Part shown: positions 15,123 through 43,685 of the stretch, in pieces
Numbering within the stretch: the stretch's first letter is position 1
Layout of the letters: the number at the start of each line of letters is the position of its first letter
DNA from: Halorarum halobium
Lineage (GTDB): Archaea > Halobacteriota > Halobacteria > Halobacteriales > Haloferacaceae
Direction of reading: 5' to 3'
Assembly (NCBI RefSeq): GCF_032116555.1
Contig: NZ_CP134949.1
Span: 868,001-932,000, forward strand
DNA length: 64,000 nt
Notes under the pieces: model-generated
Databases searched by the model: none
What the model was told of the DNA's origin: nothing
The model's input: only the letters and a program-made list of their open reading frames with translations
Translations under genes and position numbers: made by a program

Positions 15123-16187
15123 ATGGCGGACGCCTACGTCGCGCTGGCGGACGGCCGCGTGTTCGACGCACGCTGCCGCTCGCCCGGCCGCACACGTGGT
15201 GAACTGGTGTTCACGACCGCGTACACGGGGTACGAGGAGTCGTTGACGGACCCCTCCTACGAGGAGCAGGTCCTCACGTTCTCCTACCCCCTGATCGGCA
15301 ACTACGGCGTCCGAGACGAGCGATTCGAGTCCGACCGCGTCCACCCCAACGCCGCGGTCGCACACGAACTGACCGAGGACGTGGCCGAGTGGCTCGACGG
15401 CGAGGACGTTCCCGCGGTCGACCACCTCGACACGCGCGAACTCGTCACGTCCGTCCGGGAGGAGGGCGCGATGAAGTGTGGCATCGCCGCCGGCCCGGAC
15501 GCGACCCCCGAGGCCGCCCGCGAGGAGCTCGCGGCGTGCAAGGGGATGAGCGACCACGTCGACATCGGCGCGCAGGTCTCGACGACCGAGGCGTACACGG
15601 TGTCGGGCGGGGGCGAGTACGACGTCGCCCTCGTGGACTGTGGCGCGAAGGGCTCCATCGCCGCCTCGCTCGCCGAGCGCGGCGCGGACGTCCACGTCCT
15701 CCCGTACGACGTGGACGCGGCGACGGTGGCCGACCTGGACCCGGACGTGCTGTTCGTCTCGAACGGGCCGGGCGACCCGGCGAACTTCGAGGCAACGCAG
15801 GCGCTCGTCGGGGCGTTCGCGGGCGAACTTCCGCTGGCGGGCATCTGTCTCGGCCAGCAGATCGTCGCCCGCGCGTTCGGCGGCGAGACGGAGAAGATGG
15901 CGTTCGGCCACCGCGGCGTCAACCAGCCGGTGCGCGACCTCGAGTCGGGCAAGGTCGTGATGACGACCCAGAACCACGGCTACTCGGTCGCCGACCCCGG
16001 CTCGCTCGACGTGACGCAGGTGAACGTGAACGACGACACCGCCGAGGGGCTCGCCAGCGACCAGCACGACGTCGTCACCCGGCAGTACCACCCCGAGGCG
16101 AACCCCGGCCCGCACGACTCGCTCGGCTTCTTCGACGAGGTGCTCGAACTCGCCGGACGAACGCGCTCGCCCGTCGCCGCGGATTAG
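15123..16187 (+). CDS. carA: Carbamoyl-phosphate synthase small subunit
   Basis: GELVFTTAYTGYEESLTDPSY, SNGPGDP, GICLGQQ, FGHRG, QNHG, QYHPEA. Confidence 0.96.
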   Translation: MADAYVALADGRVFDARCRSPGRTRGELVFTTAYTGYEESLTDPSYEEQVLTFSYPLIGNYGVRDERFESDRVHPNAAVAHELTEDVAEWLDGEDVPAVDHLDTRELVTSVREEGAMKCGIAAGPDATPEAAREELAACKGMSDHVDIGAQVSTTEAYTVSGGGEYDVALVDCGAKGSIAASLAERGADVHVLPYDVDAATVADLDPDVLFVSNGPGDPANFEATQALVGAFAGELPLAGICLGQQIVARAFGGETEKMAFGHRGVNQPVRDLESGKVVMTTQNHGYSVADPGSLDVTQVNVNDDTAEGLASDQHDVVTRQYHPEANPGPHDSLGFFDEVLELAGRTRSPVAAD

Positions 16188-16204
16188 ACCGCTACCTCTC
16201 GCAC

Positions 16205-16404
16205 GAACCTCTTTTGCGGGGGTCCTCCTCACGCGGGCCGGCTCTGCCGGCCCACGTTCGTCGAACCCCCGCAAAACCCGTTCATGCTGTGGGATTCCTG
16301 TGGAATCCCACTGCTGACGGGAAATCTTCGATTTCCCGTAATGCCAAAATGCCGCGAGCAGCGGTCGGCGCGGCGAAGCCGCGCCTCCCTCGCTCGCGGT
16401 ACTG
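16205..16404. repeat. Family B ~200-nt multi-hairpin element, copy 1
   Basis: Aligns end to end with 43351-43549; TTTTGCGGGGG (16212-16222) pairs with CCCCCGCAAAA (16266-16276); four further hairpins. Confidence 0.88.
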
Positions 16405-16440
16405 ATACTGGTGGGACCGTACCGCCGAGAGTTCCGGTCT

Positions 16441-16902
16441 CTACTCCCCCGCGTCGTGGAACTCCGCGAGCACGTCCTCGGGAACCGGATTCAGGTAATC
16501 CACGGATTCGTCAGCGCACAGCTGCTCGAAATCCCGGTCGGTCGTGAGGAGCGCGTCGGCGTCGGCCTCGCGTGCGAGCGAGAGGTAGAAGCAGTCGAAG
16601 ACGTCGTGATTCTTCTCGGCGCTGATTTCGTACGCGTCCAGCAGCGTGTCGTCGTCTGCGTCGACGAACTCCATCGGGTACCCGAGCATCGACGAGACGG
16701 CGTTTCGCGCGTCCACCGTGTCGAAGCCGAGGTCCTGGAGGATCCACTGCACCCGGAGGGGGAGGTAACCGAACACCAGCAGCGTGTCCTCACCGGCGAG
16801 CGCCGGGACGAGTTCCTCCGCGACGTACGGGTGTCCCGGATGGTCGTCCACGAGTTGAATCGCGAGCGTGTTCACGTCCGCGAGGAGCCGACGACCCGTC
16901 AT
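16441..16902 (-). CDS. PIN-domain (VapC-like) toxin
   Basis: LLADVN, DVFDCFY, LLTTDRDF acidic PIN residues; ATGA-coupled to the upstream AbrB gene. Confidence 0.88.
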   Translation of the reverse strand: MTGRRLLADVNTLAIQLVDDHPGHPYVAEELVPALAGEDTLLVFGYLPLRVQWILQDLGFDTVDARNAVSSMLGYPMEFVDADDDTLLDAYEISAEKNHDVFDCFYLSLAREADADALLTTDRDFEQLCADESVDYLNPVPEDVLAEFHDAGE

Positions 16903-43065: not shown

Positions 43066-43311
43066 ATGTGGGTCAGGGAGCGGGACGTCGTGGACTACGG
43101 GCTCATCAGCGCCGTCACGCTGCTCGTCTACCTCCGGGTGCCGTTCCGTCCGGCGATCCGCGAGACGCTGCGGTGGTGGGTCGACTGGACCGCGGCGTTC
43201 CTCGCGGAGTCGCCCGAGGCCGCCGTCGCCGGGTTCATCGTGTTCGTCGCGCTGTTCGGCGGCGCGTTCGCGATGGGGGTCGTGCGGCACGCGTCCCGCG
43301 ACGGAGCCTGA
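43066..43311 (+). CDS. Small two-TM membrane protein
   Basis: Hydrophobic YGLISAVTLLVYL and AAVAGFIVFVALFGGAFAMGVV. Confidence 0.55.
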   Translation: MWVRERDVVDYGLISAVTLLVYLRVPFRPAIRETLRWWVDWTAAFLAESPEAAVAGFIVFVALFGGAFAMGVVRHASRDGA

Positions 43312-43350
43312 GCCGTTCGGCACGAGCCTCTTTTGACGGGGTCCTGACCT

Positions 43351-43549
43351 GAACCTCTTTTGTGGGGCATGTCCTCGCGCGTCGGCTTCGCCGACGCGCC
43401 GCGGCCAGACCCCCCGCAAAACCCGTTCGTGCTGTGAAATTCCTTTGGAACCCCACTGCTGACGGGAGATCCTCGATTTCCCGTACTGCCAAAACGCCGC
43501 GGGCAGTAGTCGACGCGGCTTCGCCGCGCCTCCCTCGCTCGCGGTACTG
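43351..43549. repeat. Family B multi-hairpin element, copy 2 (5' end duplicated at about 43320-43345)
   Basis: Colinear with 16205-16404 from GAACCTCTTTTG to CCTCCCTCGCTCGCGGTACTG. Confidence 0.88.
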
Positions 43550-43685
43550 CTGGTGGTTCCGACTGCAGTTCGAACCGGTATCGGCCGGCGGAAAGCCGGT
43601 TCCGACCGGAGAGGGTGGCCGACCGAACCGGACCGTGAGGCCGGAACCGTCCCCAGTTTTACGCGCTCGCCGCCACGGACGGAGT

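Follow-up and report, generated by a model that had tools for sequence, protein, structure and literature searches.

The 64,000-nt stretch analysed here (the window) corresponds to C1:868001-932000, C1 being the main chromosome of a genome of 3.68 Mb in three contigs (G000), and was compared with two congeners (G001 and G002). Genes were called by a crude heuristic, an open reading frame with GC3 of at least 0.84. On the plus strand, the gene carA (15123..16187) encodes the small subunit of carbamoyl-phosphate synthase (TIGR01368 at 357 bits, above the cut-off, and the Pfam families CPSase_sm_chain and GATase), and its stop codon TAG (16185-16187) directly precedes the region of interest. A 17-nt leader, ACCGCTACCTCTCGCAC (16188..16204, plus strand), recognised from the three-species alignment, the junction list and the fold, leads from the stop codon to the first hairpin. 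This leader is missing at the carA site of both congeners, and in the fold its last bases lengthen the stem of the first hairpin by pairing with ATGC.

The element of about 200 nt behind carA is a composite of hairpin A (83 nt), a two-hairpin cassette B (57 nt) and hairpin C (69 nt), all given here on the plus strand. Module A (16205..16287) has the outer arms GAACCTCTTTTGCGGGGG (16205-16222) and CCCCCGCAAAACCCGTTCATGC (16266-16287) around a variable inner cassette (16223-16265) with the apex GGGCCGGC/GCCGGCCC, and contains a T4 tract at 16212-16215. Module B (16288..16344) comprises two 10-bp hairpins, TGTGGGATTCC..GGAATCCCAC and then CGGGAAATC..GATTTCCCG; with ATGC on either side of it, its ends can be placed only to within 4 nt. 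Module C (16345..16413) is the hairpin CAAAATGCC GCGAGC..GGCGCGGC GAA GCCGCGCC..GCTCGCGG TACTGATACTGGTG, which on the minus strand reads as a hairpin followed by GGCATTTTGG. A convergent open reading frame of 153 aa (16441..16902, minus strand) ends 27 nt past module C, and copy 1 therefore fills a convergent intergenic gap.

The second copy is located at 43351-43555, colinear with copy 1 (16205-16413), in the same orientation and 81% identical to it over query positions 11-220. It follows an 81-aa open reading frame without family match (43066..43311, plus strand, stop codon TGA at 43309-43311), and the observation of the sequence-only reading that each copy lies 3' of a plus-strand reading frame, ending at 16187 (carA) and 43311, was confirmed. 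The modules of copy 2, also on the plus strand, are A (43351..43432), with the other type of inner cassette (CATGTCCTCGCGCGTCGGC TTC GCCGACGCGC..), B (43433..43489) and C (43490..43555). Both the G.U pairs and the A.C mismatches reported for the plus strand are present. Three A.C mismatches were located in the first short hairpin of module B, at columns 103/119, 104/118 and 105/117 of an alignment of nine copies; they were read as those of copy 2 and are G.U pairs on the minus strand, while single G.U pairs elsewhere were also assigned to copy 2.

Before copy 2 stands an incomplete duplicate of A's 5' arm (GCACGAGCCTCTTTTGACGGGGTCCTGACCT; 43320..43350, plus strand), and the junction ...GGTCCTGACCT also precedes two further G000 copies. 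Such duplicates of the first ~22 nt of A were seen ahead of three copies (window 43320-43350, G000:C1:936799-936826 and upstream of 937615), joined in all three by the word GACCT. This arrangement suggests that new copies may have landed in or beside old ones, or that slippage took place at the arm.

The fold was evaluated as minimum free energy against 200 shuffles. In copy 1 it reaches -126.9 kcal/mol on the plus strand (z -10.5) and -144.8 kcal/mol on the minus strand (z -13.2). None of the 200 shuffles was as low on either strand, so the fold of the copies is not a product of chance.

A 221-nt query was searched against the whole G000 genome with blastn and nhmmer, and its matches split into A (query positions 7-93), B (90-155) and C (147-219). 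Counting with nhmmer profiles of the three modules gave 16 A-containing elements in G000, all on the main chromosome: six A-B-C, nine A-C (one of them at C1:124866-125017) and one scored as A only, which in fact bears a C with inverted interior. Two truncated A copies were identified as well. The two-hairpin core B occurs 22 times in this genome (one core being at C1:1977126), six times within A-B-C and 16 times inside a different repeat, and these copies too are confined to the main chromosome. The congeners contain the same modules plus A-B and A-B-D-C forms, D being another two-hairpin cassette, of ~52 nt; one of their copies has three tandem cassettes in the same orientation, each ending in ..TGC. 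A-containing elements number at least 41 in G001 and G002 together, and matches at least 25 in G001 and at least 41 in G002, figures that are lower bounds taken from the best 40 candidates per genome. All the combinations of A, B, C and D lie outside called genes.

The different repeat that shares core B forms a second family, in which the core stands between GTCGTTCGA[AAATCGAAGATTT]CGTGATGC and TACTGA[hairpin]TCGAACCACG. It is present at G000:C1:104442-104568 and 15 further places, folds into a multi-branched junction and occupies long intergenic regions, not the vicinity of stop codons. Other composite arrangements were observed in G000. Two loci (C1:166095-166579 and 2286211-2286677) contain two elements each, in inverted orientation and 80-185 nt apart, and in the element at 166390-166579 a piece of the second repeat family is nested in the apex of hairpin A. 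From C1:1034552 onward, directly after module C, there is a tract of ~130 nt of short repeats resembling CACCGCA/CCGCA, and a similar tract follows the orthologous copy in G002.

The sequence-only reading had described the change in the inner stem between the two copies as two fully compensatory pair swaps. The apical stems are as described (GGGCCGGC/GCCGGCCC in copy 1, GCGTCGGC/GCCGACGC in copy 2) and the fold is kept despite the difference in sequence, but base-by-base covariation under selection on an RNA did not stand, the swap being one between different inner cassettes of A. At least two types of interior exist for hairpin A: copy 1 belongs to the type TCCTCCTC..., which may or may not include a GC-rich apex, and copy 2 to the type CATGTCCTCGCGCGTCGGC.... 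The covariation term of RNAalifold over nine full A-B-C copies was +1.16 kcal/mol on the plus strand and -0.29 on the minus strand, which gives no net support. Pairs with double changes in these nine copies were seven on the plus strand and eight on the minus strand, four of them at the apex of A, where the cassettes differ.

These results bear on the proposal of a structured sense-strand RNA, in which hairpins of the 3' UTR would control mRNA stability or translation termination from behind the stop codon, as REP sequences do in E. coli. Such an element would agree with the position directly behind the stop and the shared orientation with the gene, with the strong plus-strand fold and with the G.U pairs on that strand. 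The accessible part of PMC12306157 also states that E. coli REPs positioned under 16 nt away from the stop lower translation and stall ribosomes. It is nevertheless a distinctly unlikely explanation here. Besides the missing net covariation, 57 of 57 elements have their better fold on the strand antisense to the upstream gene, with a mean difference of 10 kcal/mol, although these are not independent trials because strand features are inherited by the family. As read from the fold of copy 1, the antisense strand is an unbroken rod; at the positions of its tandem GA/AG and GGG/GAG mismatches the sense strand shows UC/CU and C.A, and antisense G.U pairs likewise stand where the sense strand has C.A. 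The tally of the 57 elements on the sense strand is 132 G.T versus 184 A.C, a modest leaning to the antisense strand in counts that are not independent. The T4 tract of A, moreover, comes ahead of the hairpin, and the transcript may end there without including it. Rfam gave no match at the gathering threshold in the whole window; at E up to 10, five weak matches to unrelated families were obtained between 15900 and 16700, the best with E 0.28, at chance level. Interiors and loops, finally, occur in both orientations; together with the better antisense fold, this speaks for a palindromic DNA repeat more than for an RNA of the sense strand.

The exchange of inner segments was identified throughout the family. 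The type of the inner cassette of A, read from the list of sites, differs between species at at least 12 of the 19 orthologous sites with several species, orthology being judged by flank similarity. Two copies have a 42-nt interior of A that is exactly reverse-complemented relative to the usual one, and one G000 copy has an inverted C interior. Of 39 distinct cores, 13 have TTC and 8 have GAA as the loop of the second hairpin of B. The 42-nt interior of A was also observed in both orientations within one genome in another family of the order (genomes G469 and G286). Recombination between the inverted arms, or template switching from one to the other, may turn interiors and loops around, and this putative arm-to-arm flipping would account for the flips without selection on an RNA. 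For module C, mean identity is 0.773 among orthologs, compared with 0.753 for different sites of one genome and 0.715 for different genomes. From these statistics, which are weak, we infer ectopic gene conversion on the conserved arms as a route by which cassettes and inner segments would move from one copy to another; a putative hairpin-specific enzyme would be the alternative.

Gain or loss of module B can be read at the carA site, the one clean pair on which the comparison of filled and empty sites rests. In all three species A follows the stop codon and C follows A; G001 and G002 have A-C right behind the stop, whereas G000 has A-B-C, the 57 nt of B being found only in this genome. The flanks of B at carA are ATGC and CAAAA, and its own last four bases are again ATGC. 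Since the end bases of B vary between copies (..AATG-C, ..ACTG-C/A), other copies ending in CTGC or CTGA, this second ATGC is not read as a duplication of the target. The word before B is ATGC in 25 of the 39 distinct cores and NTGY in 38 of them. The site of copy 2 is empty in G001, with a spacer of 119 nt, and contains A in G002; for the comparison of target duplication at this one site, the flanks of the empty G001 site are strongly diverged relative to the filled copy. The empty G001 site has its own hairpin with an 8-bp stem (GGTTCCGG..CCGGAACC) right behind the stop codon and a T5 tract ~55 nt further. With regard to a MITE, which would have terminal inverted repeats and a target-site duplication, the two ends of the element, GAACCTC.. 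and ..CTGGTG, do not form inverted repeats. The family is dispersed and polymorphic for indels from species to species, as module B at carA and the site of copy 2 show.

The junctions of B raise the question of a mobile single-stranded intermediate. According to this explanation a recombinase or nuclease would act on the purine-rich strand, folded as single-stranded DNA, much as on an attC or REP site, and the ATGC junction between A and C would be the acceptor of double-hairpin cassettes of 52-57 nt in one orientation. It is consistent with the constant strand asymmetry and the tandem GA/AG and GGG/GAG mismatches of the better-folding strand, with the ATGC or NTGY word before B, with tandem cassettes in one orientation that each regenerate a ..TGC end, with the absence of target-site duplication at carA and with the attC-like combination of conserved ends, variable centre and location behind a reading frame. 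It is held to be very doubtful, given that the tagged genes are core genes and not cassette arrays, and that A-B-C copies could stem from one A-B-C master or from gene conversion without an insertion enzyme. The integron integrase model TIGR02249 reached at best 36.9 bits versus a cut-off of 265; the Y1 (HUH) transposase family PF01797 had no match in G000, G001, G002 or G025; and no mobilising enzyme for the element was found. A wider version, a hairpin-cassette system, also appears unlikely. In it, palindromes welded to stop codons would serve as gene-end insulators and landing pads, and a hairpin-specific enzyme acting on single-stranded DNA would stack cassettes of 52-57 nt at ATGC and flip their interiors, as an archaeal counterpart of REP/RAYT or attC/IntI without genes or known catalyst.

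A remnant of IS200/IS605 type would be either a PATE of fused ends or the scaffold of a TnpB guide (omega) RNA, and identity with such an end had been named in the sequence-only reading as what would refute its own proposal of a structured element. Subterminal hairpins, an apparent lack of target duplication and the short word that stands 5' of the insert agree with a remnant, as do the 52-bp terminal-only PATEs with two similar palindromes described for Haloquadratum in the accessible text of PMC3119063. The explanation is nonetheless extremely improbable. Identity with an IS200/IS605 end was not found at 13 tnpB loci: the A, B and C profiles had no match at E up to 0.1 at 12 tnpB loci in relatives, and their best E at the G000 locus was 0.24. 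The gene tnpB itself is present once in G000, absent in G001 and broken in its single G002 occurrence, a Y1 TnpA is lacking, and Rfam, including its TnpB/IscB omega-RNA models, had no match to the element. An autonomous form was also considered and rejected, A and C never being kilobases apart in three copy-rich genomes of another family.

The main result is the position of the copies relative to genes, and the sequence-only suggestion of a 3'-flank element held as a gene-tail feature. In the three species, 24 of 28 independent sites, or 48 of 55 copies, have the start of A between -2 and +42 nt from the stop codon of a co-oriented reading frame. Taken at random, an intergenic position and strand would fall within 0-45 nt in 4.9% of cases (P about 1e-27). 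Most sites have at least one species with a spacing of 0-5 nt between stop and A, and there are several copies whose GAACC supplies, with its G or GA, the end of the stop codon itself. Of the remaining four of the 28 sites, two hold degenerate copies, one holds a copy paired in inverted orientation with a neighbouring one, and one faces a gene start. Between the stop codon and the A side there are mostly 0-20 nt; spacing on the C side is less tight, with at least 21 nt to the next gene in all but one of the G001 and G002 copies. The tagged genes include those for the small subunit of PolD, CarA, TFB, a CDC48 ATPase, PhoU, MenB and a KorB-like protein (oxoacid:ferredoxin oxidoreductase beta subunit). 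A regulon was rejected, the upstream genes having no common function.

The orientation of the element follows the upstream gene in tandem gene contexts (~17 copies versus 4 in our own tally). Two convergent gene pairs have a copy behind each of their genes, oriented like that gene and within 1 kb of the other copy. The orientation is thus tied to the gene and not to the replication arm, and an orientation set by the replication strand was rejected on account of these opposite copies.

Anchoring was also identified beyond the genus. In eight genomes from three genera of the same family, 11 of 14 copies start -2 to +11 nt after a stop, and several of these copies follow genes that are also tagged in the window's genus, including those for the oxoacid:ferredoxin oxidoreductase beta subunit and MenB, the C-terminal flanks being matched by eye. 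Matches to the full query were obtained in at least 13 of 151 genomes of the family, from 4 of 41 genera, among the best five candidates per genome. An exact pattern of the outer arms was present in 26 of 401 genomes of the order, representing 17 of 116 genera and four families, with one match that looks spurious; the reversed control of this pattern gave one match. Among named genomes, five exact 22-nt matches were identified: two in Halolamina salina, one in Halolamina rubra and the others in two uncultured Halobacteriales/Haloferacaceae bins. Plasmid and phage collections, searched in distant mode, contained no match to the element.

The other families of the order are not uniform in this respect. 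In family f2 both copies (n=2) are adjacent to a stop codon, and in family f12 none of the 18 copies examined is. The f12 copies begin with CAAC and have an extra conserved left module of ~45 nt (..GTGAAA..CGCG..TACAG). Since f12 copies are not adjacent to stops, anchoring is specific to lineages and not a property of the repeat as such. The copies of the f12 genome G469 are nearly identical, which suggests recent spread.

The f12 copies bring in the explanation of a selfish or neutral palindromic repeat without host function, which would have reached gene tails by insertion or by escape from deletion and whose arms would be kept by homogenisation. The recent spread suggested in G469, the degenerate or truncated copies at some sites, the sites empty in one species, the higher identity within than between genomes and the 18 f12 copies away from stops are all in its favour. 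It was judged improbable, however: the same genes are tagged at the stop codon across genera, spacing is asymmetric, with the A side near the stop and the C side far from the next gene, orientation follows the upstream gene, and the genus has no transposase able to impose a target preference.

The preferred reading is that the element is a mosaic palindromic A/B/C chromosomal repeat of Halobacteriales located, in this genus and three related genera, behind the stop codons of co-oriented genes, that it is probably used as a gene-end signal, and that its modules are predicted to be reshuffled at the DNA level and not conserved as an RNA. Based on sequence comparison, this reading as a whole is given somewhat less than even odds, roughly 45%. 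For sense transcription, an archaeal T-stretch terminator directly behind the stop codon would be provided by the T4 tract located 8-11 nt into A, which is found 8-20 nt past most of the stop codons. Convergent or stray transcription into the gene would be halted on the antisense strand, where TTTT comes after hairpin C and again ahead of hairpin A. The element would then be a two-way gene-end signal with a terminator or insulator role, recruited from a palindromic DNA repeat and still reshuffled as one.

This interpretation as a two-way signal is drawn from three elements: the TTTT on both strands, the enrichment of TTTT after stops and T-stretch termination in Haloferax volcanii. In the whole G000 genome, TTTT located 10-30 nt after stops amounts to 91-96 per 10-nt bin, versus a genome average of 16 and an intergenic value of 44.5. 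On C1 this peak is ~6x the genome average, and only ~7% of called genes have a TTTT within 30 nt. In H. volcanii, according to the accessible part of PMC7237163, a T stretch is the intergenic termination motif, T5C giving 95% termination and a hairpin 59%. A scan for terminators of the bacterial type (hairpin plus T) gave no site between 15900 and 16700 of the window. Against a terminator role it counts that the tract in A has only four T, and against the gene-end reading that the copy number is low. A terminator role does not explain the better antisense fold of all 57 elements, nor does it explain that spacings pile up at the stop codon, with some copies overlapping it.

If the gene-tail reading is correct, haloarchaea would have a gene-end element defined by sequence and transplantable, kept behind the same housekeeping genes in several genera. 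It would offer a handle on how tail-to-tail archaeal genes terminate and avoid antisense read-through, on whether a hairpin at the stop codon affects the terminating ribosome, as REP does in E. coli, and on the upkeep and reshuffling of palindromic repeats in genomes without the usual Y1 transposase. A caution also follows for other loci: "compensatory changes" between nested palindromic copies can stem from cassette exchange and arm inversion, and not from selection on an RNA fold.

Several known systems have parts of this architecture. The BOX elements of Streptococcus pneumoniae are intergenic, form stable hairpins and are built as A-Bn-C with a variable number of middle modules, a three-module architecture also present here; they are, however, bacterial and unrelated in sequence, and are not known to be tied to stop codons. 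The integron attC site is likewise an imperfect palindrome with conserved ends and a variable centre, located behind a reading frame in the orientation of that frame and folding better on one strand. In contrast with attC, the copies here are single, behind housekeeping genes, without cassette arrays and without an integrase above the cut-off. The core motif of attC is GTTRRRY, which the arm end GTTCATG of the element does not fit.

The closest described archaeal repeats are the PATE and SMR elements of Haloquadratum. In Haloquadratum walsbyi, PATEs and SMR-A have no transposase, are rich in palindromes and make no target duplication, and small repeats insert in or next to the palindromes of other repeats to form conglomerates (Dyall-Smith et al. 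2011, accessible text of PMC3119063). The element shares with them, as that text describes them, the haloarchaeal host, the richness in palindromes, the lack of transposase and the occurrence in conglomerates, together with an apparent lack of target duplication at the one clean pair, carA. The 52-bp terminal-only PATEs of the same text resemble cassette B in having two similar palindromes, and one criterion for PATEs, on folds and sequences, describes the element as well. Unlike PATEs, the element has no similarity to IS605-type ends. SMR-A (HqIRS42/43/55) is about 110 bp long with prominent inverted terminal repeats (accessible text of PMC3119063); compared with this description only, cassette B at 57 nt is about half the length and its ends are not inverted copies. 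Anchoring to stop codons and conservation at orthologous genes are not mentioned for the Haloquadratum repeats in the accessible text of PMC3119063. Likewise, no description of the present family or of stop-codon anchoring of haloarchaeal repeats was found in the searched literature outside subscription journals.

The best label for the family is that of a REP/BIME-like mosaic DNA repeat anchored at gene tails. REP and BIME are extragenic imperfect palindromes arranged in mosaics (BIME as defined in the accessible part of PMC2817692), and the family has the same traits: extragenic imperfect palindromes in mosaics (the combinations of A, B, C and D), location at gene 3' ends and strand-asymmetric hairpins. 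It differs from REP/BIME in its archaeal host, in its longer and nested modules (57-83 nt), in a copy number of tens and not hundreds (more than 100 per genome being the criterion), in a genus without RAYT or Y1 transposase, in the lack of Rfam similarity and in being anchored to the same genes across genera. Among these systems the REPs of E. coli would be the closest functional parallel, as many of them lie 1-20 nt past a stop codon and affect the upstream gene, those within 15 nt stalling ribosomes (accessible part of PMC12306157, citing its reference 17).
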